Assembly: GCA_964518475.1 (NCBI GenBank)
Contig: CAZFGR010000040.1
Location: forward strand, 1-10,456
Source: an uncultured Nitrososphaerota archaeon
GTDB lineage: Archaea; Asgardarchaeota; Njordarchaeia; Njordarchaeales; Njordarchaeaceae
Direction of reading: 5' to 3'
Length of the DNA stretch: 10,456 nt
Positions 1 through 10,197 of this stretch are shown piece by piece. Position numbers and translations under genes: made by a program. Every line of letters starts with the position of its first letter. Position 1 is the stretch's first letter. The notes under the pieces were generated by a model that saw only the letters and a list, made by a program, of their open reading frames with translations, was not told the origin of the DNA and did not search any database.

Positions 1-557
1 GTTTCTATTAGACCGAGTTTAATCTCATACGCTAAGAGTTCTTTCTCCATTTCTTTATAGTTTGGGTAGCGTTTTTGGATGCATATCCAGAAATCTTTAT
101 TATGTTTTGGCTCGATTATGTGACATATTTCGTGGTATATTATGTATGATATTAGATGATCGGGAAGATAACTGGCTAGTGTGTTTATTGTGATGGTTCC
201 TTTTGGACTACAACTAGCCCAGCGCGATTTCATCTTTCTTATAACGATTCTACACGGGTTCATACCTAGAATCTCCTTTGTAGCTTGCTCAACAAGTTCC
301 TTCACCAAGTTCCTGAACTCGGCTTTGCTCCTTTCTACTAACTCAACATTTCTTGAACGTTCTAGAGCCTCAAGGAGCTCTGCATGTTTTTTCTCAATCC
401 ATGCTCTGTGTCTCTCTATAATCCTATATGCTTCGTTTCCATCTACTCCTTCAGGTAGAGTTACTAGTATTCCCCAGGGCTTAACTTCGAGCTTAGGTCT
501 TATGTTTTTGGAGTATTTTATCTGTACTTTCCACTTACTCTCGCTGTTCTGAATCAA
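1..557 (-). CDS. YgjP/DUF45-like (M48/SprT-like) zinc metallo-hydrolase, 3'-truncated by the window edge
   Basis: Not in the supplied ORF track; translated by hand. The frame is open from TTG at 557-555 to the window edge, and the TTG is preceded by GAGGGTGA, an SD-like sequence inside the 3' end of hsdR. The product reads ...KWKVQIKYSKNIRPKLEVKPWGILVTLP...IRKMKSRWASCSPKGTITIN...LISYIIYHEICHIIEPKHNKDFW...YPNYKEMEKELL. The 'MKSRWxSC' and HExxH (HEICH, 134-120) + H-x3-FW motifs are typical of YgjP/DUF45 proteins, which commonly follow hsdR. The start codon is uncertain. Confidence 0.88.
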   Translation of the reverse strand, partial: MIQNSESKWKVQIKYSKNIRPKLEVKPWGILVTLPEGVDGNEAYRIIERHRAWIEKKHAELLEALERSRNVELVERSKAEFRNLVKELVEQATKEILGMNPCRIVIRKMKSRWASCSPKGTITINTLASYLPDHLISYIIYHEICHIIEPKHNKDFWICIQKRYPNYKEMEKELLAYEIKLGLIE

Positions 558-3500
558 TGCTCTTCACCCTCTCAACTAGTAGGTCTACAAGTTTCTTCGC
601 ATTCTCCTTTGGAAGACCAGCTCTACGAGCCTCACGTAGTATTGTTATAGCAACTCTCCTCTCTACATCGCGAATTAGCTTAGGGTTATGAATCCAACCT
701 GGCACACTAATTCTATCACTCACTTGCTTCATAAGCTCCTTTGTAACCTCCATTGCACGTCTCTGCTCAAAGCCTGCATCTATTAGTGTACGATAAACTA
801 AGTACTCTCTGCGTCCGAAACGTAGCTTTGCCTGCTCCTCTTTTAAAGCGTATATCTCTTCCCAAAGCCTTTTAGCCTTCTCATAAAGCTCTAGGCTAGT
901 CTTCTGCTTCCTTCTCCACTCCTCTAGGAGAGCCTCTATTTTATCAGCTACAGACACATAGACAGGGTCATTACGTGCGTATAACCTAAACCTAATTATA
1001 CCCATGATAAGAGCCGAGGCCTTCTCTTCATCACTCATATCTCTGCTTTGTATGAATTCTTCGAAGAACTTACGGTCTATAGTAATAGGAGAAAACTCTG
1101 CCTCCTTCTCTAAGACTTGTAGAGACCGGCTTATGGCCTCAATAGTCCTCTTGTAATATTTCTTCGCTAATTCCTCCTCTGGGCTAGTACCTACAAAGTT
1201 CTTTATGTAGAATGTATATATGTCTGAAAGCCACTTATACTCTTCTCGTTCCTGTCTCGTAAGCTTTGGTGCTATGAGCTCGTATAATCTACGAAGTACA
1301 CGATATTTCTCAGTGAACTCTCTCTCTAATTTCTTGTCTTTAACTATGTTCTCTGCCTTAATCCTTACGTGTTTAAACAATTCTTTATCACTCTTAACGG
1401 TGGGTCTTGAACCAATGAGCTGTAGTAATTGTTGAAGTATCGTCCTAAACCTTCCTAGAATGTCTTCAACGTCAAATACTGCTCCCTTAAGGTCTTCCCT
1501 CTCATACATAGCGAAAGCTCTTTCAAGCTCATCGAATATCCCTATGAAGTCTATGATAAGTCCATACTCCTTAACTCCACGGTAAGGCCGGTTAACTCTC
1601 GCTATAGCCTGCAAGAGACGGTATCCTTTCAGGAGTTTATCAAGGTACATTGTCTGAAGTATCGGTGCGTCAAATCCCGTTAAAAGCATGTCTGTAACAA
1701 TGAGTATTCGTGGATTCTCCTCTGTCCGGAATTTCTCTATGATTTTTTGAACAGCGTCTTTGGGGTCTGTTACATGGTATCTTTCCATTAACTCTCTCTT
1801 ATACTCCTCTATTAATTCATCCTTCTCTTGGTTCTGAAAGGTCATCACGACCTCGCTGTACTCTGGCGGCAAATACTTATCCAAAGCCCTCTTATATAAG
1901 ACACATGCTTTCCTGCTAGTAGCTACAACCATGGCTTTGAATCTACCATCAACATTTTCTCGGAAATGCTTTGCTATGTATTCTGCGACTTTATCTATTC
2001 TTTTTGGATCTTCTAGAAATACCTTGAACTTCCGTACATCAAGTTCCTTGCCTATACGCTTCTCAACCCTTCTCCTAACCTCCTCGGGTAACTCGTCAAA
2101 CTCCGACTCCAAGAACTCGTCGAGAAGCTCTCGTCTAAGCTTATAGTCGAAGGGGCCAGGTTGATAAGCTATCCTTACCGTGTATCCATCTCTTATCGAG
2201 TCGAGAATGAAATACTTGTCGAGGTATAGTTCAGTAGGCGGGCTGAACTTTGCAAATGTATTCTTTAGTGGGTTCTTCCTCGGCACAGGAGTACCCGTGA
2301 ATGCGAAATAATTAGCCTTTCTTAATAACTTCATCATTTGCTCCGCTAATACTCCATACTGTGTCCTGTGTGCTTCATCTACTAGTACAATAATATCTTT
2401 CCTATCCATGACCGTCCCTAGTCTAATCTTAGCTATAGCTTCGAGGAGCTTCTCAAGTTCTTCAAACTCCTTAGGCAAGAACTTCTGTACTGTAACCACA
2501 AACACTCCAGGCTCCCCACGGTAATCATTATAGCTTAAAACTTGTCTGAGCCTAGGGATACTATCGATGAGCTTCGGCTTAACCTCAGGGCCTAAGTCTA
2601 ACTTGGTGAGGTTCTCATAGTATAACTGATTCTGAAGTTCTACTCGGTCAACAACAAAGAAAATCATCGGGTTCTCCAACAACCAGTAAAGCTTCATAGC
2701 AGCGAAAATCATTGTCAAAGTCTTACCACTACCCTGCCAATGCCAGATAAGGCCACGGTCAATATCGGTCTCCCCTCTAAGCCTCTTTAAGACACGTTCA
2801 ACAATCTTGTTGGCAGCCCTATACTGCATATACCTAGCTATAACCTTGGTTTCCCTACCCTCTTCCATCCTAAAGTATGTATAGAACCTTAGGATATCAA
2901 GAAGTTTCGTAGGCCTCAGCATCTCAATAGTCGAGTCTATAGAGTCTAAGCCCTCTTCTCTCCACTCATAAACAGTTATATTATCGGGCTTAGCCCAAGG
3001 CACAATAGGGAAATACCGAGCAACAGCCTCAACAGCCACACCAATCTGGATATACTTATAAAGCTCCGGAACATCCTGTTCATAACGCTTAATTTGGAGG
3101 AAAGCATCACGCCAAGAAACACCAAGGTCAGTAGGACTCTTAACCTCAATATTAACTAACGGAATACCATTAACGTAGAGAATTATATCGTTCCTAATCT
3201 CATGAATACCGACATGAGGAACTTGCTTAGAAACAATAAACTCGTTCCTACCAGGGTTGTCATAGTCTATCAGCTTAAGCCTAGCAGAAGTACGTGTCTC
3301 ACTAAGCTTGACTGGAACACCAAACTTTAGATACTCAAGAATCTTGCGGGCACCCTTAGGCCCATAACTACGTCCTTCAAGAAGCGAAATAGCCTCAGAA
3401 ATATCCTCTTCGGAGACGCCAGGATTGAACTCACGAATCTTACGCCGTAAAATAATATAAAGAAGTGGCTTATCCAGCCCTTCCCGCTCTAAGCGTGAGG

Positions 3501-3573
3501 AGCCAACGTATCTCCAGCCACGCCTAACAAGCTCATCAATGATATAATCCTCAAGTCCTCTCTCCCGAACCAT
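535..3573 (-). CDS. hsdR: Type I restriction-modification enzyme, restriction (endonuclease/translocase) subunit R
   Basis: 1012 aa. N-terminal nuclease motif RNDIILYVNGIPLVNIEVK (D...ExK) plus QIKRY (QxxxY). Walker A WHWQGSGKT, Walker B VDEAHRTQY, motif III FTGTP, LLTGFDAP and motif VI QAIARVNR. SD AGGTGA lies 7 nt upstream of the ATG. Confidence 0.97.
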   Translation of the reverse strand: MVRERGLEDYIIDELVRRGWRYVGSSRLEREGLDKPLLYIILRRKIREFNPGVSEEDISEAISLLEGRSYGPKGARKILEYLKFGVPVKLSETRTSARLKLIDYDNPGRNEFIVSKQVPHVGIHEIRNDIILYVNGIPLVNIEVKSPTDLGVSWRDAFLQIKRYEQDVPELYKYIQIGVAVEAVARYFPIVPWAKPDNITVYEWREEGLDSIDSTIEMLRPTKLLDILRFYTYFRMEEGRETKVIARYMQYRAANKIVERVLKRLRGETDIDRGLIWHWQGSGKTLTMIFAAMKLYWLLENPMIFFVVDRVELQNQLYYENLTKLDLGPEVKPKLIDSIPRLRQVLSYNDYRGEPGVFVVTVQKFLPKEFEELEKLLEAIAKIRLGTVMDRKDIIVLVDEAHRTQYGVLAEQMMKLLRKANYFAFTGTPVPRKNPLKNTFAKFSPPTELYLDKYFILDSIRDGYTVRIAYQPGPFDYKLRRELLDEFLESEFDELPEEVRRRVEKRIGKELDVRKFKVFLEDPKRIDKVAEYIAKHFRENVDGRFKAMVVATSRKACVLYKRALDKYLPPEYSEVVMTFQNQEKDELIEEYKRELMERYHVTDPKDAVQKIIEKFRTEENPRILIVTDMLLTGFDAPILQTMYLDKLLKGYRLLQAIARVNRPYRGVKEYGLIIDFIGIFDELERAFAMYEREDLKGAVFDVEDILGRFRTILQQLLQLIGSRPTVKSDKELFKHVRIKAENIVKDKKLEREFTEKYRVLRRLYELIAPKLTRQEREEYKWLSDIYTFYIKNFVGTSPEEELAKKYYKRTIEAISRSLQVLEKEAEFSPITIDRKFFEEFIQSRDMSDEEKASALIMGIIRFRLYARNDPVYVSVADKIEALLEEWRRKQKTSLELYEKAKRLWEEIYALKEEQAKLRFGRREYLVYRTLIDAGFEQRRAMEVTKELMKQVSDRISVPGWIHNPKLIRDVERRVAITILREARRAGLPKENAKKLVDLLVERVKSIDSEQRE

Positions 3574-3580
3574 AAATAAG

Positions 3581-3586
3581 TCACCT
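3581..3586 (-). promoter_or_regulatory. Shine-Dalgarno-like AGGTGA for hsdR, overlapping the hsdS stop codon
   Basis: The minus strand reads TAGGTGACTTATTTATG. Related motifs precede hsdS (AGGTGA, 4975-4970), the YgjP-like gene (GGGTGA) and the 422-aa gene (GAGTGA). Confidence 0.7.
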
Positions 3587-4961
3587 AAGAAACACGCTCA
3601 ACTCTTACCCTAACCCTACCAGTTAAGAGAAGCTCCATCAAACCACGCTTCAAGCGCTCAAGCTTCCCCTTACGCTCCTCTTCCGATATAATCCACTGGT
3701 CAATTGAGAAAAGCGTGTTTGCTATCATCTTCTGCTCTTCTATAGGCGGTCTTGGAACTAAGAATGATTCTAGGTCTTTCTTTGTGATAGCCTTGAATGT
3801 TGAACCCTTTCCCATAGCTTCAAGTTTTGGTTTAATTAAGCTAAAATAGTAGAAATAGAATAATGTAATGGCACTATCGTTATTGAAACGGATAGCTGTC
3901 AACCCTCTTCCTATGCATAGTTTATACGGTGCTATGTTTACATCACCTACAGGTGCCCGAACAGATATTAAGAGATCACCCCTTTCAGCTACTTTGATTG
4001 GTTTAGACGTGTATAGCTCTGGTGTAGGATAAATACGACCAAACTCAGCCTTACCCTGCAAGAAGGGCAGTCCAACACCATCTTCGTTATAAGTGCTAGA
4101 TGGCGGCGACTGACCCATAATAATTCTAGCAATTCTCGAAAGAGATACTACTTCCCATTGTTTTGGTATTTTTCCTATTGGTGTTTGTTTGTATTCTTTG
4201 TGTCCTATTCCCTTGGTTAGTAGCTCCTGCATTAGACCACGTTTCAAACGCTCAAGCTTCTCGATGACCCTCTCAGTAGCCTCGATAGCCCTGTCAACCG
4301 TGGAGAGAACCTCAGCAATACCCCACTGCTCCTCTAATGGTGGAAGCGGTATAGTGAAATTAACCAAGAATTCCTTCCTTAGATTTTTTATATTTGTTCC
4401 AGATACTCTGTTTATTAGATATCGTTTGAATATATTGGATTTAAGTAGATGATATATGAAAGTCGGATTCAAGACTCTACTATCAATCCTTAGTATCCCT
4501 AGAAATGCTCCAATAGCAATTTGCTTACTAACTAATTCTTTGATGAGCAGAGATCTTCCAACAAGATGTCTACTTCCGCTTGAAGTTACTATTATTATGT
4601 CGTTTTTCTTAATTATCTGAGAAGGCTTGACCCTATTTCTATTGATATAAATTAAGTTGTCAAGCAGAAGAGAGTGTTCCCCTAGATTGGTGGCTCTTAA
4701 TATTGGTATTGAATCATCCGTAGGGATGAAACTTATTTCTGTATTTTTAAAACTCACTCCTCGTACAAATTCCTTTATATGTCTACCTAGCTTAGAAATT
4801 GTCCATTCTTTTGGAATTCTACCTATAGGTGTGTCCTGAACTGTTGTTTCCTTATAGAATCCTAGTATTTTGTATATCGTCTTTTCTTGTGTCTCCTGCT
4901 TAGTTATTTTTGGTGAAACAGTATATCGTTTTAAATATTCGTCAAGTGTTTTCATCTGCAT
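3585..4961 (-). CDS. hsdS: Type I R-M specificity subunit S
   Basis: Two-TRD architecture with duplicated conserved regions: TPIGRIPKEW / TPIGKIPKQW and IPLPPLEEQ...KLERLKRGLMQELLT / VPRPPIEEQ...KLERLKRGLMELLLTG. The ORF track starts at GTG 4973, but that GTG sits inside an AGGTGA SD located 8 nt before ATG 4961, which is the more likely start. The gene overlaps the hsdM 3' end. Confidence 0.95.
   Translation of the reverse strand: MQMKTLDEYLKRYTVSPKITKQETQEKTIYKILGFYKETTVQDTPIGRIPKEWTISKLGRHIKEFVRGVSFKNTEISFIPTDDSIPILRATNLGEHSLLLDNLIYINRNRVKPSQIIKKNDIIIVTSSGSRHLVGRSLLIKELVSKQIAIGAFLGILRIDSRVLNPTFIYHLLKSNIFKRYLINRVSGTNIKNLRKEFLVNFTIPLPPLEEQWGIAEVLSTVDRAIEATERVIEKLERLKRGLMQELLTKGIGHKEYKQTPIGKIPKQWEVVSLSRIARIIMGQSPPSSTYNEDGVGLPFLQGKAEFGRIYPTPELYTSKPIKVAERGDLLISVRAPVGDVNIAPYKLCIGRGLTAIRFNNDSAITLFYFYYFSLIKPKLEAMGKGSTFKAITKKDLESFLVPRPPIEEQKMIANTLFSIDQWIISEEERKGKLERLKRGLMELLLTGRVRVRVERVS
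3642..4260. repeat. Internal direct repeat of hsdS conserved regions (3642-3666 and 4236-4260)
   Basis: accacgcttcaagcgctcaagcttc vs accacgtttcaaacgctcaagcttc, 23/25 identical. Both copies encode KLERLKRG on the minus strand. Confidence 0.85.
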
Positions 4962-6699
4962 TTTTGGCTTCACCTTTGTTCGCTCGAATTATTTGTTGTA
5001 TATATTGTAGTGCCTTGGCTCTGGCTTCCATCGCTTGTTTCTCTATTTCTAGAAGCTCCTGTAGCTCTTTCTCCAAGTCTATTTCCTCAGTTTCCAATGG
5101 TGGAGTTACGTAGAGTGTTACGTTTAGGTTGAAGTCGTTCTCCCTTACCTCTTTAATATCTACTACTCTGGTGAAACCTTCTATGTCTTTGAACTCGTGG
5201 TACGCTCTGGCTATTTTCTCGATGTTCTTTCTTCCTAATCTGTTGAGCCTTCTTATGCTTGGGTGTGGTTCGTATTCATTGCTCGCGTTTATGAATAGTA
5301 TTTTTCCTTTCCGTTCTGGTGGTTTCTGTTTGTTGAATATTATTATGACTCCCGGTGCTTGTGTGTTGTAGAAGAGTTTTTCAGGTAGTAGTATAACTGC
5401 TTCTACTAGGTCTCTTTCCAATATTTTACTTCTTATAGTCTTCTCTCTACCTCCTCTAAATAACGCTCCATTATCTATCACTATTCCTACTTTGCCTCTA
5501 GGTTTAGCCGCTGCTAACATGAGCTGTATCCATGCCCAGTCAGCGTGTTGACTTGGTGTGTATCCGTACTTATATATTAGGCGATATTTCTCGTTCTTCT
5601 TTAATACTTGTTCGTTGTAGCCGTCTTGGTTCCATGGCGGGTTGGCTATTACTATGTCCCATTCCTCTAGACCAAACTTGGGGTAGAGGAGAGAGTCTCC
5701 AACTTCTATCTTGTGGTTCTGTATATTGTGTATGTACATGTTCATTTTCGCTAAGGCCGCTGTCTTCGCATTGACTTCTTGGCCAAATAGGAATAGTTTA
5801 TCTGCTTCTTCCCTCCCATATTTCTCTTCAACATATTTATAGCTTATTATGAGCATGCCTCCACTTCCAGCTGCTGGGTCTAGTATCTTATCGCCTGGCT
5901 TTGGATCTAGTATTTCTACCAGAAGTCTGATGACTTCTCTTGGAGTATAAACTTCACCTTCTTTGGCCTTCTCTGGGGCAAACATCATTAATAGCCACTC
6001 GTAGGCATCTCCAAGAATGTCTGGCGGAGTATCTATTAAGGGTACGGAGTCAAAAAGTTCCACTAGTTGGCGGAGTATCTCGCTGTTCTCTTTACTGGAG
6101 GCGAAAATGTGGAAGTCGAAGTTATCGAATATCGGGCGTAGCTCTGGGTTTAGTTCTCCTAGCTTCTTTAGTGCTCGTGAGAAATAGACGTGTAGTTCTC
6201 CCTTATGCTTAACTATGTTGTCCCATAGGTATTCCTCTGGTATTTGGAACTGGTGAAAGTATTTATCTCTTGCCAGCTCCTTGGCTTCTTCTGGGCTGTA
6301 TCCTTCTTCTATCAGTTCCTTATACGTTTTCTGGAACTCTAGTTTCCATTGGTCACTTATCTTCTTATAAAATAGAAGCACTAATATGAATGAGTAATCT
6401 ACGCGGGTTCTTATTAGGTCAGCCGCTTTTTTAAGAATTGATTCTAGGTCACCTCTGGTCACTGGTATTTGACGAAGCGAGTATATTTTTTTCTTAGGAT
6501 TATCAGGATCCACCGCAACTACTACAAGGTTATGGCGTCTCAGATTACTTAGAAGTGTTATCACACTATCTACTGGTCGCTCTAGCACCTTAGATGCGTC
6601 CTCTACAGTAAATGGTTTTTCGCCAAAATATGCACGAAGACGTATATAGTCGTTAAGCATCCAAGAGGGGATTTTATTTGACGGCAAAACAGTCACCAT
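4942..6699 (-). CDS. hsdM: Type I R-M N6-adenine methyltransferase subunit M with an N-terminal winged-HTH-like extension
   Basis: 585 aa. The HsdM N-domain starts at about aa 80 (LESILKKAADLIR...LLFYKKISD). Motifs: LGDAYEWL, GEVYTPREV, SAM-binding motif I ILDPAAGSGGML, FGQE, catalytic motif IV IANPPWN, LPEKLFYNT, LFINAS. Residues ~10-76 look like a wHTH (FTVEDASKVL...VITLLSNLRRHNLV...DPDNPKKKIYSL). Confidence 0.96.
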   Translation of the reverse strand: MVTVLPSNKIPSWMLNDYIRLRAYFGEKPFTVEDASKVLERPVDSVITLLSNLRRHNLVVVAVDPDNPKKKIYSLRQIPVTRGDLESILKKAADLIRTRVDYSFILVLLFYKKISDQWKLEFQKTYKELIEEGYSPEEAKELARDKYFHQFQIPEEYLWDNIVKHKGELHVYFSRALKKLGELNPELRPIFDNFDFHIFASSKENSEILRQLVELFDSVPLIDTPPDILGDAYEWLLMMFAPEKAKEGEVYTPREVIRLLVEILDPKPGDKILDPAAGSGGMLIISYKYVEEKYGREEADKLFLFGQEVNAKTAALAKMNMYIHNIQNHKIEVGDSLLYPKFGLEEWDIVIANPPWNQDGYNEQVLKKNEKYRLIYKYGYTPSQHADWAWIQLMLAAAKPRGKVGIVIDNGALFRGGREKTIRSKILERDLVEAVILLPEKLFYNTQAPGVIIIFNKQKPPERKGKILFINASNEYEPHPSIRRLNRLGRKNIEKIARAYHEFKDIEGFTRVVDIKEVRENDFNLNVTLYVTPPLETEEIDLEKELQELLEIEKQAMEARAKALQYIQQIIRANKGEAKNADENT

Positions 6700-6830
6700 T
6701 CATACCTAATATACATTATTTTTTAGTTAGATATCTAAATCTAAAAAATTTTCGGTTATATGATTTTTATAACCTATGCCAGCACACATACTATAATTAG
6801 GGAATAGTCGGTATCTAGGATGCGATTTCA
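6700..6830. promoter_or_regulatory. Divergent promoter region between hsdM and pAgo, with two inverted repeats and TATA-like boxes
   Basis: AT-rich 131-bp spacer between head-to-head genes. Palindrome ATTTTTTAG-TTAGATATCTAA-at-CTAAAAAAT (6718-6749) and inverted repeat GGTTATA-N7-TATAACC (6754-6774). TATA-like TTTTATAA on + (about 6765-6772) and TTTAGATA on - (about 6739-6732). Confidence 0.6.
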
Positions 6831-8918
6831 ATGTACTTCAAGCCATCATTTATAAGAATTCGTCAAAGCATACTGGATGTCCAGGCTATTGTAATCCCTA
6901 ACATCTCCAGGCTTAGTGGTATTAGGTCTATGGACGTCCAACGTTTCTTCAGATCGAATAATTTACCCACAATTGCCTCTAAGCAATATATTGGTTTTCT
7001 CCCTGTTGCAAAGCGTAGTGATGAAGGCTTAAAGATGGTAGAACGAAATCTTCAACATCTTAGTTTTTTGATCAAAAACAAGAAGGTTAGGTCCATTCTT
7101 AAGGATATTATGGAAGATTTGGAGTTTATGCCATTAAGAGAGCTAATTGATATATATGATAAGCATTGGATAAATGTCGTTGATGTCCTAAAGAAATCTT
7201 TTCTAAACGGTTTTCATGCTTGGGGATTGTTAAATAATGGTAGAATTATGAGTAATCTAATTGATCCTAAATTGGGAATAAGCTTTGATGTATCCTTGTT
7301 TTTGAAGTTTCTGCGTCTCCCACCAGATTTTCCAATCGTAATGGTTTGTAGACCAAAAGCTATCGGAGAAAAATCTGGGGAGCGGGTTACATTAAGTAAA
7401 GCTGGAAAAGCTCTTGTGCTCGAGAAGTTTGAGGAATTTAAATCGAAGCTTAAAAAGATCTCATTCTACGTCGGAGGGACTAAAATTGATCTATCTAAAG
7501 CAGAAGAATTTGAGGACGTTATTCATTTAAAGGAAGACTCTATTGAAATTCCCTCAAACGAGAAAGTGCCGACTTTCTTAGAGATTCATCGCGCTATTAT
7601 CGATGAATTAGTTTACTCCGCTACCATTAAGCGATTATATCATTATGGGGAAGAGCAAAAAGAACATCCATATCGTGATTTGCAGAATCTTCTGCCTTAT
7701 GACTTATCCTTTAAAAAGTTCAGAAAAATCCGTATGATATTCGCTATCTCTTCTAACGAAAATGAAAAAGTAAAGGACCTGTTTCAAAAGTTTTACAATG
7801 CAATTGAGGAAAGTCCAAAAGATATGTTAAGGTTTCTTGGTGGCTCTGAAAAACTCGGGGATGTTCTTAATCTCAAGATTGTGGATGATATCATCGAGTT
7901 TAATTCTGTGGACGATCTCATCAACGATCTCAAACAAACTGCCCGTCCATTAAGTGTTGCTCTAAGTCAGGAAGAAGCTGACATTATAATTATTGGCACA
8001 TCAGCTTATAGGGGAGCTCCACGAAAATCTGGGGCTAAAGAAAAGTATGATGCGGTTAGAAAGAAGTTATTAGAAAATGGTTATGCGAACCAGTTTATAT
8101 CTTATTATTCTGCGTCTGGAAATCCAGCGGGTCTTTTAGCACAATTTGAGCGTGGAGGCTCTAGTTATGAGTTCTCGCTTGGGAATTTTATGTTAAATGT
8201 GTATTGCAAGGTTTCTGGGAGACCTTGGGCTGTTCGTCAAGATCCAAGTTCTGCAGCACATGCAATCATTGCATTAGGTTTTGCTAAAAGTGATGATAAT
8301 AAATTCGGCATAGGAGTATCCGTCGTTATTGATGAGTATGGGGATCTAATACAAATAAGCTCATGGGATCTCCCAGACTCAGTACTACGTTCTAAAAACC
8401 TCTTCGTTGATAAAGGTAAAATGAAGGACATAATATTACGTGTTGCAGATAATATAGCACACAATAAGAAATATCTGTCAAGGATTAGCCTTACAGTATA
8501 TAAATATGGTCGCTTCTCTGAGGATGAGCTCCAAGGTATGCGTGATGCGGTTGATGAGTTGAGTTCATCGGAGCTTCGAATATCACCTATTTCTGTTCAG
8601 AAAGAGAGCATATATCCATATTCCTCTAAGAAATATGTTAGACTCACGAATCGGAGTGTTCTTTTTAGTCCTCTCAAAAATGCTTATGCATCCGTTGCGA
8701 TACTTTGGCCTTTAGGGAGTGATTATGATTACTTTTCTGATTTAGGGGGTATGGTCAATAACATTGAGGCCTTATTGAGACTACATTGGCAGACTCTCTG
8801 GACTAGAATACGTCGATTAGCAATTTTAAAGGCTGCGAACAGAATTGCTCGAGATCGCTTGAATGGTTATAGTTTGCCCTCTGATCCAGCGTTGATAAAG
8901 ACTCCGTGGTTCATTTGA
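6831..8918 (+). CDS. ago: Prokaryotic Argonaute (PIWI-domain protein), predicted catalytically inactive, long-B-like
   Basis: 695 aa. MID 5'-end pocket pattern KY(406)DAVR(410)KKLLENGYANQ(421)FI and MID/PIWI junction N(452)FMLNVYCK(460)VSGRPW (cf. the generic 'N..l.i.aKlGG.PW'). PIWI strands AIIALG(483)FAK...GVSVVIDEYG, LTVYKY(559)GRFSEDE and ISVQK. C-terminal LLRLHWQT...LAILKAAN(670)RIA and terminal PWFI. The Asp positions of the GxD and RDG motifs are replaced by Gly and Tyr. Confidence 0.88.
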   Translation: MYFKPSFIRIRQSILDVQAIVIPNISRLSGIRSMDVQRFFRSNNLPTIASKQYIGFLPVAKRSDEGLKMVERNLQHLSFLIKNKKVRSILKDIMEDLEFMPLRELIDIYDKHWINVVDVLKKSFLNGFHAWGLLNNGRIMSNLIDPKLGISFDVSLFLKFLRLPPDFPIVMVCRPKAIGEKSGERVTLSKAGKALVLEKFEEFKSKLKKISFYVGGTKIDLSKAEEFEDVIHLKEDSIEIPSNEKVPTFLEIHRAIIDELVYSATIKRLYHYGEEQKEHPYRDLQNLLPYDLSFKKFRKIRMIFAISSNENEKVKDLFQKFYNAIEESPKDMLRFLGGSEKLGDVLNLKIVDDIIEFNSVDDLINDLKQTARPLSVALSQEEADIIIIGTSAYRGAPRKSGAKEKYDAVRKKLLENGYANQFISYYSASGNPAGLLAQFERGGSSYEFSLGNFMLNVYCKVSGRPWAVRQDPSSAAHAIIALGFAKSDDNKFGIGVSVVIDEYGDLIQISSWDLPDSVLRSKNLFVDKGKMKDIILRVADNIAHNKKYLSRISLTVYKYGRFSEDELQGMRDAVDELSSSELRISPISVQKESIYPYSSKKYVRLTNRSVLFSPLKNAYASVAILWPLGSDYDYFSDLGGMVNNIEALLRLHWQTLWTRIRRLAILKAANRIARDRLNGYSLPSDPALIKTPWFI

Positions 8919-8928
8919 GTGATGATGT

Positions 8929-10197
8929 ATGAAATTGTTGCTGGAAATTCTAAACATGATAAAGGATGGAAATGAGCTCTTCAAAAAGTGGACTAATAAG
9001 AACAAATCGCAGATCAGTAATCTTATTATGAGTATCTTATCAAATATCGAGGATAATCTTACACGCAAAAGCAATGAATTATATTATGGATTCAGAGAAT
9101 TCTTCAGAGACTCAATTGCTTTAATGATGTATGCTATGGGATTCCATCTCGTATTTGGATGTGATGAGATTATTGCCAAGATAAAACGTTTAACCAGGTT
9201 GCTAGAAGATAAAGCGAGAATATTACATCTCACGGACATTAACTATTTTAGGGAAATCCTAGAAAATCTTGATAAAATTTATAGCAAGTACAAAGATCCT
9301 TCGTCGATAAGCCCTCCAGACGTAAATGATCCTTATTTCCACTATGATTATGTCCTTAAATTATATCATAGCTTTCTCACAGCTTTGGATTCGGAGGAGG
9401 CTGAAAACTTTATTTCCCGTTATTTAATACCTATAAACAGGGTGTTTGCATACACGATAGATCTGGCCTCTGACCTACGAGCCGAGATGAATAAGGGGGC
9501 ATTTTTAACGGAGAGAAATTGCTTTCTCGTCACTGGAATATGTAATCTATTACTCAATTTATTACAAAAAATCCTCAGTAAAGCCTCCAAATTGTTTACC
9601 AAAATGTGCGTGAAAACTTTAAGCAACAATCGTTTCTGGGAGAACTTAAAGTCACTTCAACAGAATGAGCACAAAATATTAGAAAATCTAAAATGCTTAG
9701 GAACCGCTCTAAAAGATGCAAATACTACCTATGTGGGTGCCGCATTAGTTAATGTAGAACTCTCTGATATCGAATTTGACGGTTATATAGAGGTTCTTGG
9801 GGAGGAGCCTTCTGGACAGAGAAGACATTACATAATTATGATTATTGAATGCAAGCTTGAAATGTTTTCTGAGGACTATTCGGAAAGCGATCGAATAAAA
9901 ACCCAAGCAAAGAGACATTTAAAGGTTATAAGGGAGAAAATAGTCCCTTACTTCAAGCTTCTATATAGAAATCCGCCTTTAATCGCATATTTTCTTCTAG
10001 TGAATCGTGAGTTGTCTAAAGAAATAAAAGATATTTTAAAAGAATTAGAAAACGAATTTACAGGCGAAGATTATAAAATATGTGTTAGTTTTCTTACTCA
10101 TAAAGCTCTAGAACGCGCTGTTAGGAAGTATAGCGGCTTTTCTGACGACTTAATTAATTTCTTTTTCTCGAGCATGATAGGGGAACGGGATCATTAG
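8929..10197 (+). CDS. Putative pAgo-associated effector: unknown helical N-terminal region plus C-terminal PD-(D/E)XK (Mrr/REase-like) nuclease domain
   Basis: 422 aa, starting 10 bp after the pAgo stop with an SD-like GAGTGA. The C-terminal ~180 aa show helix NE(247)HKILENLKCLG, strand DIE(282)FD(284)GYI, IMIIE(307)CK(309), helix ...KTQ(326)AKRH, then strand AYFLLVN, helix SKEIKDILKE, strand ICVSFL and helix KALERAVRKY. This order and these residues fit the restriction-endonuclease-like fold. Confidence 0.7.
   Translation: MKLLLEILNMIKDGNELFKKWTNKNKSQISNLIMSILSNIEDNLTRKSNELYYGFREFFRDSIALMMYAMGFHLVFGCDEIIAKIKRLTRLLEDKARILHLTDINYFREILENLDKIYSKYKDPSSISPPDVNDPYFHYDYVLKLYHSFLTALDSEEAENFISRYLIPINRVFAYTIDLASDLRAEMNKGAFLTERNCFLVTGICNLLLNLLQKILSKASKLFTKMCVKTLSNNRFWENLKSLQQNEHKILENLKCLGTALKDANTTYVGAALVNVELSDIEFDGYIEVLGEEPSGQRRHYIIMIIECKLEMFSEDYSESDRIKTQAKRHLKVIREKIVPYFKLLYRNPPLIAYFLLVNRELSKEIKDILKELENEFTGEDYKICVSFLTHKALERAVRKYSGFSDDLINFFFSSMIGERDH

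Follow-up and report, generated by a model that had tools for sequence, protein, structure and literature searches.

A candidate defense operon of an inactive Argonaute and a putative PD-(D/E)XK nuclease in an Asgard archaeon

That inactive Argonautes can switch on separately encoded effectors is a principle established only recently. To our knowledge, the details of such activation come almost wholly from bacteria, plus one Sulfolobus system that has a membrane effector. Here we describe a pair of adjacent genes, encoding a prokaryotic Argonaute (pAgo) and a partner protein, in contig C40 of an archaeal metagenome-assembled genome (MAG; 2.33 Mb in 121 contigs, 91% complete, 5.8% contamination). 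The window that we analyzed is this entire contig, of 10,456 bp. We consider it probable, with some reserve, that the pair forms a two-gene archaeal defense operon in which an inactive Argonaute is coupled to a separate nuclease effector and is guide-activated in the manner of the bacterial BPAN system. The pairing of an inactive pAgo with a nuclease effector, put forward in an earlier reading of the sequence (the original prediction), is supported as far as computation allows; guide-dependent activation and a role in defense are what we infer by analogy. The genes and the spacer between them are as follows:

6831..8918, forward strand: pAgo gene (P0001), 695 residues, predicted to be catalytically inactive; open reading frame with PADLOC, PDB-profile and fold matches.
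8919..8928, forward strand: 10-nt spacer GTGATGATGT between the pAgo and partner genes, with the Shine-Dalgarno (SD)-like motif GTGAT.
8929..10197, forward strand: partner gene (P0002), 422 residues, candidate effector nuclease; open reading frame directly after the pAgo gene.

Both open reading frames and the spacer were thus found, as predicted, as two co-oriented genes 10 nt apart with an SD-like motif between them. GTGAT or GGTGA lies 5-8 nt upstream of the partner ATG in the window and in the related loci L001, L002, L003, and L007, and this recurrence fits what is expected for archaeal SD/anti-SD pairing.

The closest precedent is BPAN, a characterized bacterial system in which a long-B pAgo acts with bAgaN, a collateral DNase (e.g., E. 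coli EcBPAN; Song et al. 2023, PMC10620215; Liu et al. 2026, PMC13535254), and the concept is therefore not new. Like the window pair, BPAN is a two-gene operon. It combines a dead pAgo of ~700 residues that has an N-lobe with a two-domain partner encoded by its own gene, and the C-terminal domain of this partner is a restriction endonuclease (RE)-like PD-(D/E)XK domain with the motif D...E-x-K. EcbAgaN is described as having a docking domain at its N-terminus and an RE-like D-ExK domain at its C-terminus; this order recurs in the predicted architecture of the window partner, and BspD6I is a structural neighbor of bAgaN and of the window partner alike. The two differ, however, in that the window partner has no detectable sequence match in PDB, Pfam, or PADLOC (the bAgaN content of these libraries is not established) and in that the host here is an Asgard archaeon whereas BPAN is bacterial. 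They also differ in the affinity of the PIWI domain: when a six-sequence profile of the pAgo family was compared with PDB sequences by HMMER, the best match was the SPARDA Ago (9qbp_B, 1.9e-12), a short pAgo, followed by AfAgo (3.4e-6) and the SPARSA Ago (6e-5), with EcAgo (1.3e-4), KmAgo (5e-3), and RsAgo (0.07) weaker. As no homology of the partners is detectable by sequence, the parallel with bAgaN is architectural only. Membership of the pAgo in the long-B group is not established. New here are the host, which is an Asgard archaeon, a divergent clade of pAgos and a partner family not classified before.

In SPARDA, a short pAgo is paired with a DREN(DUF4365)-APAZ effector; the pAgo is likewise inactive, and the effector is likewise a PD-(D/E)XK protein, of the Mrr/RecB-like group. 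In the window pair, by contrast, the N-lobe (the region equivalent to APAZ) is fused to the pAgo, the partner carries an all-helical N-terminal domain and has no match to DUF4365, and the guide pocket begins with Y, where short pAgos typically have H/R. We rejected an identity with SPARDA or another short pAgo-APAZ system because the effector has no APAZ and the pAgo carries its own N-lobe of ~290 residues. The SiAgo-Aga1-Aga2 system of Sulfolobus islandicus combines an archaeal short pAgo with a membrane effector, whereas the effector here is a predicted soluble nuclease without transmembrane (TM) segments and a separate Aga1-like N-lobe protein is absent from the pair. A SiAgo-like identity was also rejected, because there is no membrane effector (Aga2) and no separate Aga1, and the operon has two genes. 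Surveys of Asgard Argonautes describe clades found only in Asgard archaea, in which long and short forms occur together and to which short pAgos are the sister group (PMC11217426, PMC11291487). Their catalog (Bastiaanssen et al. 2024, PMC11217426; Leao et al. 2024, PMC11291487) includes a 742-residue Njord asAgo, ASG575_01292, with an ATG start and a TAA stop, which in length and stop codon fits P0013, the relative in genome G287. For this clade the searched text of both papers gives phylogeny and tetrad statistics, with no partner nuclease, operon, or mechanism (PMC11217426, PMC11291487).

On the combined evidence of sequence and model, P0001 is an Argonaute with MID and PIWI domains that is too divergent for the Pfam Piwi model, a Pfam scan having given no Piwi match. 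The PADLOC pAgo model PDLC02436 matches residues 273-630 (E=6.5e-35). A Foldseek search with the AlphaFold model of P0001 gave 177 matches at E<=1e-3, with all 50 of the 50 listed being Argonautes, and the best 28 matches of an unbiased VIA scan of 48,161 chains were all Argonautes as well; the Argonaute fold on which the original prediction depended was found in both searches. The model has a mean predicted local distance difference test (pLDDT) score of 62 and is acceptable in the N-lobe and MID domain and poor in the PIWI domain (pLDDT <50) and in residues 230-294. Its domains were assigned as follows:

6831..7712, forward strand: N-terminal lobe, residues 1-294, probably N-L1-(reduced PAZ?)-L2; residues 230-294 poorly modeled.
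7713..8216, forward strand: MID domain, residues ~295-462, with pocket residues Y406 (8046-8048), R410, Q421, and K460 (8208-8210).
8217..8915, forward strand: PIWI* domain, residues 463-695, with the C-terminus TPWFI; assigned from HMMER alignments to the PIWI domains of the SPARDA Ago and AfAgo and from mapping of TtAgo motifs.
Within PIWI*, forward strand: tetrad positions A485 (8283-8285), Y559 (8505-8507), and N670 (8838-8840).

The original prediction had called this a long pAgo, which stood only in part. Some 290 residues precede the MID domain, and from residue ~4 the model superposes on the long Argonautes CpAgo, RsAgo, and CbAgo with a root-mean-square deviation of 9-11 Å, the N-lobe aligning with that of the long Agos. 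A PAZ subdomain, on the other hand, is not resolved in the model, in which residues 230-294 are poorly built, and the PIWI sequence appears closest to short pAgos, the PDB ranking being only a proxy for clade.

TtAgo (plasmid pTT27) was aligned to the pAgo family profile with hhalign, which gave a colinear alignment of low probability in which D478, D546, and D660 of TtAgo fall on A485, Y559, and N670 of P0001. As this probability is low, the tetrad mapping rests on local motifs, with GFD of TtAgo corresponding to GFA, RDGR to KYGR, and ADRL to ANRI. The position of the glutamate finger could not be aligned reliably, and the tetrad reading covers A485, Y559, and N670; the residues at the corresponding tetrad positions of the P0013 subclade are Y, L, and E. 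From these alignments the DEDX catalytic tetrad is not present in P0001, which we predict to be a non-slicing pAgo, in agreement with the broken tetrad originally proposed for this MID-PIWI protein. Conversely, the pocket for the 5'-end of the guide appears intact: residues R418/K422/Q433/K457 of TtAgo correspond to Y406/R410/Q421/K460, in the pattern Y406-x3-R410-x10-Q421...K460 (Y/R/H-K-Q-K in general form), and Y406, Q421, and K460 are invariant in six of six family members, with R or K at position 410. A first pocket residue of Y (YK) is of the long-pAgo type, short pAgos having H or R (HK/RK) (Ryazansky 2018, PMC6299218). P0001 also shows two features together that, following that study, go with long-B pAgos, an inactive PIWI* and a YK-type MID motif (PMC6299218).

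The partner, P0002, had no match in Pfam or NCBIfam (E<=0.1 to 1) or in PADLOC, these library searches yielding noise only, and a partner profile found nothing relevant among PDB sequences at E<=10. None of the curated PD-(D/E)XK families in Pfam and NCBIfam (Mrr_cat, NERD, DUF4365, Cas4 etc.) was matched by its sequence, and Mrr_cat was pointed to only by language-model and structure leads. The structural model (pLDDT 68; secondary structure by DSSP) divides the protein into two domains:

8929..9717, forward strand: N-terminal all-helical domain, residues 1-263, of unknown family; candidate pAgo-docking or regulatory domain (DSSP of the model).
9718..10167, forward strand: C-terminal PD-(D/E)XK (Mrr/FokI-like) domain, residues 264-413, with D284 (9778-9780), E307 (9847-9849), and K309 (9853-9855).

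Structural matches of the helical domain were only generic helical bundles. The modeled core of the C-terminal domain is alpha-beta-beta-beta-alpha-beta, with D284 at the start of beta2 and E307 and K309 at the end of beta3, where catalytic residues canonically lie. N.BspD6I, MspJI, EndoMS/NucS, FokI, Shedu, and HamA are among the matches listed by Foldseek for this domain, and Mrr_cat clusters dominate a shape search of the ESM Atlas with it. Six family members, some as little as 19% identical, all share D284, I287, E288, E307, C308, and K309, among other residues. The C-terminal domain thus has the core fold, the D on beta2 and the (D/E)xK on beta3 of PD-(D/E)XK enzymes, and we regard it as a putative nuclease. 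An active site E247...D284...E307-x-K309 had been proposed, and three of its residues (D284, E307, and K309) hold throughout the family; E247 does not, being K, F, or other residues in relatives. No TM segments were predicted in the partner family.

The pair is extremely rare. A word-indexed search of 5.8 billion sequences yielded three further pAgos and one further partner, and all that a full HMMER profile scan of 1.84 billion representatives contributed beyond these were two fragments and P0012, a distant relative of 412 residues; the partner family thus numbers <10 sequences among the billions searched. There were no matches when a genome-contig collection was searched with the pAgo alignment, or when viral contigs were searched with the partner. 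Within the genus, two of seven genomes encode the partner; elsewhere in the phylum, 393 sampled genomes were all without it. Wherever it could be judged, the linkage is strict: the pAgo gene is followed on its own strand, after 10-20 nt, by the partner gene in the window and in L001, L002, L003, L019, L007-L010, and L011, and none of the partner homologs with a visible upstream region is without a pAgo. Counting only loci with upstream DNA visible, this amounts to seven non-identical loci, in all of which the two genes are adjacent, so that the co-occurrence of homologs on which the original prediction also hinged was found. The loci fall into two deeply diverged subclades, as P0013 and P0012 are 27% (pAgo) and 19% (partner) identical to the window pair, and the P0013/P0012 pair retains the TPWFI C-terminus, the same best PADLOC model, and the D...ECK motif. 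For the pAgo and for the partner the ratio of nonsynonymous to synonymous substitution rates (dN/dS) is ~0.1-0.2, by which measure both genes are under purifying selection.

It is feasible that the two genes are independent neighbors in a defense island, i.e., an orphan inert or regulatory pAgo beside a stand-alone Mrr-like (Type IV-style) restriction enzyme, as the fold matches of the partner in the Atlas and the PDB are Mrr-type restriction enzymes and the locus is surrounded by restriction-modification (R-M) genes. We find this improbable in the face of same-strand adjacency in 7/7 loci, across both subclades and three different neighborhoods, while a partner without a pAgo was never seen among the 1.84 billion representatives and 400 genomes of the phylum, and the partner has no recognizable Type IV DNA-recognition domain.

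Taking the pair as a BPAN-like guide-activated operon, we envisage that the pAgo, which keeps its guide pocket and would be unable to slice, takes up short guides and searches for invader nucleic acid complementary to them. Target binding would then recruit or de-repress the partner by contact between the two proteins, with the N-terminal helical domain as a docking or autoinhibitory module, and the C-terminal Mrr/FokI-like PD-(D/E)XK domain (D284, E307, K309) would degrade DNA. By analogy with bacterial BPAN, the outcome of such guide-dependent DNase activation would be invader destruction or, probably, abortive infection. Prediction of a complex of pAgo residues 290-695 with the whole partner returned a score of 0.01, which gives no verdict and was used neither for nor against this scheme. 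Several points do weigh against it. The support is computational throughout, and no homology between the partner and any characterized pAgo effector can be detected by sequence. On the side of the pAgo, confidence is low for the PIWI half of the model, the tetrad was mapped through a low-probability hhalign alignment with motif support, and the fourth tetrad position in the P0013 subclade is E, the remaining positions being non-acidic. On the side of the partner, the family does not conserve the glutamate that many PD-(D/E)XK enzymes have in alpha1, and the gene is frameshifted in two metagenomic contigs (L011 3651-4876 and L012 1-707), which could reflect decay or errors of sequencing or assembly.

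The same linkage and nuclease-fold evidence would also suit a partner that is a helper and not a suicide effector, either cutting the invader specifically after recruitment by the pAgo (DdmDE-like) or generating guides, as do Cas4-family ACE1 and co-encoded nucleases for long-A pAgos, without collateral damage or abortive infection. There are precedents for helper nucleases of pAgos (PMC12094033, PMC11162769, DdmDE preprint). However, the known guide-generating helpers go with catalytically active pAgos, whereas the window pAgo has no tetrad, the two-domain architecture of the partner resembles that of bAgaN, a collateral DNase, and targeted and collateral cleavage are not distinguishable from sequence; overall we hold a helper role to be unlikely.

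Upstream of the pAgo gene the window is occupied by genes on the opposite strand:

3..6699, reverse strand: Type I R-M operon plus YgjP-like metallopeptidase (Pfam and PADLOC), made up of the next four entries.
4942-6699, reverse strand: hsdM, diverging from the pAgo gene.
3585-4973, reverse strand: hsdS.
535-3573, reverse strand: hsdR.
3-557, reverse strand: YgjP-like metallopeptidase.
6700..6830, no strand assigned: divergent promoter region from hsdM to the pAgo gene, with the palindrome TTAGATATCTAA at 6727-6738 followed by an A/T-rich TATA-like box.

R-M genes neighbor the pair in three contexts, namely this Type I operon, a different Type I operon in G287 (37-48% identical), and a Type IIG Eco57I-like gene in L001, and judged by its gene content the neighborhood is a defense island. 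The pair could instead have a role outside defense, e.g., in the processing of the chromosome or of replication intermediates or in support of mobile elements; roles of this kind have been suggested both for some pAgos and for the Lokiarchaeia HrAgo2 operon. Some pAgos do help replication or decatenation, HrAgo2-type Asgard operons include transposition and replication genes (PMC11217426), and a TnpB/OrfB_IS605 gene lies ~4 kb downstream in G287. Such a role is nonetheless less probable still than two independent neighbors, as the distribution within the genus is patchy, R-M neighbors recur, and the operon itself has no replication or transposition genes.

The palindrome TTAGATATCTAA and a TATAAAAA-like box are kept in L002 and L003, in which the flanking DNA is 62-68% identical. 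Because the palindrome (in the window within 6719-6746, with the TATA-like box) is kept although its surroundings have diverged, it may be a shared operator. Repeats inside the operon are otherwise at chance level, and neither Rfam nor tRNA searches matched anything in the window or in L007. In the 585-residue HsdM the Pfam HsdM_N match begins at residue 85, leaving ~80 additional N-terminal residues unexplained. A gene for a YgjP-like (WLM/SprT-type) metallopeptidase follows hsdR in both Type I operons (window 3-557, reverse strand; L007 5307-5651). In G287, L007 5751-7061 encodes P0015 (436 residues, no known family, two C-terminal TM segments) between the YgjP-like gene and the pAgo; P0015 could be a third component in the distant subclade, the window version being without it.

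Comparison of the window with L003 (window 6673-7953 and the DNA after it) revealed a sharp mosaic. From ~nt 7954 to the contig end at 10456 the two are ~99.7% identical, whereas the promoter and the first ~350 pAgo codons (N-lobe and start of MID) are only 62-78% identical, and the end of hsdM upstream is 88-89% identical. In the diverged pAgo segment the synonymous divergence (dS) is ~1.2 and dN/dS ~0.18. Recombination that swaps allelic cassettes of the Argonaute N-lobe would give such a pattern, and this is what it looks like. A more far-reaching proposal is that the locus represents a distinct Asgard-restricted system, with a deep-branching pAgo (its N-lobe fused to a short-pAgo-like PIWI) and an effector of an origin unrelated to bAgaN/DREN. 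In it, the helical domain would couple recognition to activation unlike the 8:8 bowl of BPAN or the filaments of SPARDA, and the N-lobe would be exchanged between strains as a cassette, in keeping with the 62-78% against ~99.7% nucleotide identity in the rest of the operon, perhaps in answer to anti-Argonaute factors of viruses; we find this proposal doubtful, though not far-fetched.

The host is archaeal, as had been thought probable, because the MAG encodes ribosomal protein S8e; a 16S gene was not found in it. We place it in the genus JAHQWF01 (Njordarchaeaceae, Asgardarchaeota) via the same-genus genome G287 (GCA_026993975.1, the source of L007), which is assigned in GTDB to Asgardarchaeota; Njordarchaeia; Njordarchaeaceae; g__JAHQWF01 (supplement, bioRxiv 10.1101/2025.07.24.666526). 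DNA of the locus was detected in sediment and hydrothermal-vent metagenome runs, and the habitat of the host is hydrothermal sediment. A second Argonaute system is encoded in the same MAG on contig C41 (L013, 3273-9045), consisting of a 354-residue protein, a 453-residue short pAgo (PADLOC PDLC02436, 9e-56; Pfam Piwi match), a 433-residue protein with several C-terminal TM segments, and a 666-residue protein, with an EVE-domain gene and a radical-SAM/SPL-like gene upstream. Its layout looks like that of SiAgo-Aga1-Aga2 and more SiAgo-like than the window pair; no similarity was found between the N-lobe of P0001 and the 354-residue protein, or between the partner and the 433-residue membrane protein.

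Nothing is overturned by this locus, which a specialist would see as an expected though undescribed branch. The partner is a new PD-(D/E)XK family for defense-finder models, and the operon is an example of apparent modular exchange of an Argonaute N-lobe. As a compact test case, the locus has a nuclease that would be coupled to target recognition without an APAZ adaptor, and it would carry the Argonaute-nuclease design into Asgard archaea, which among prokaryotes are the lineage nearest to eukaryotes.

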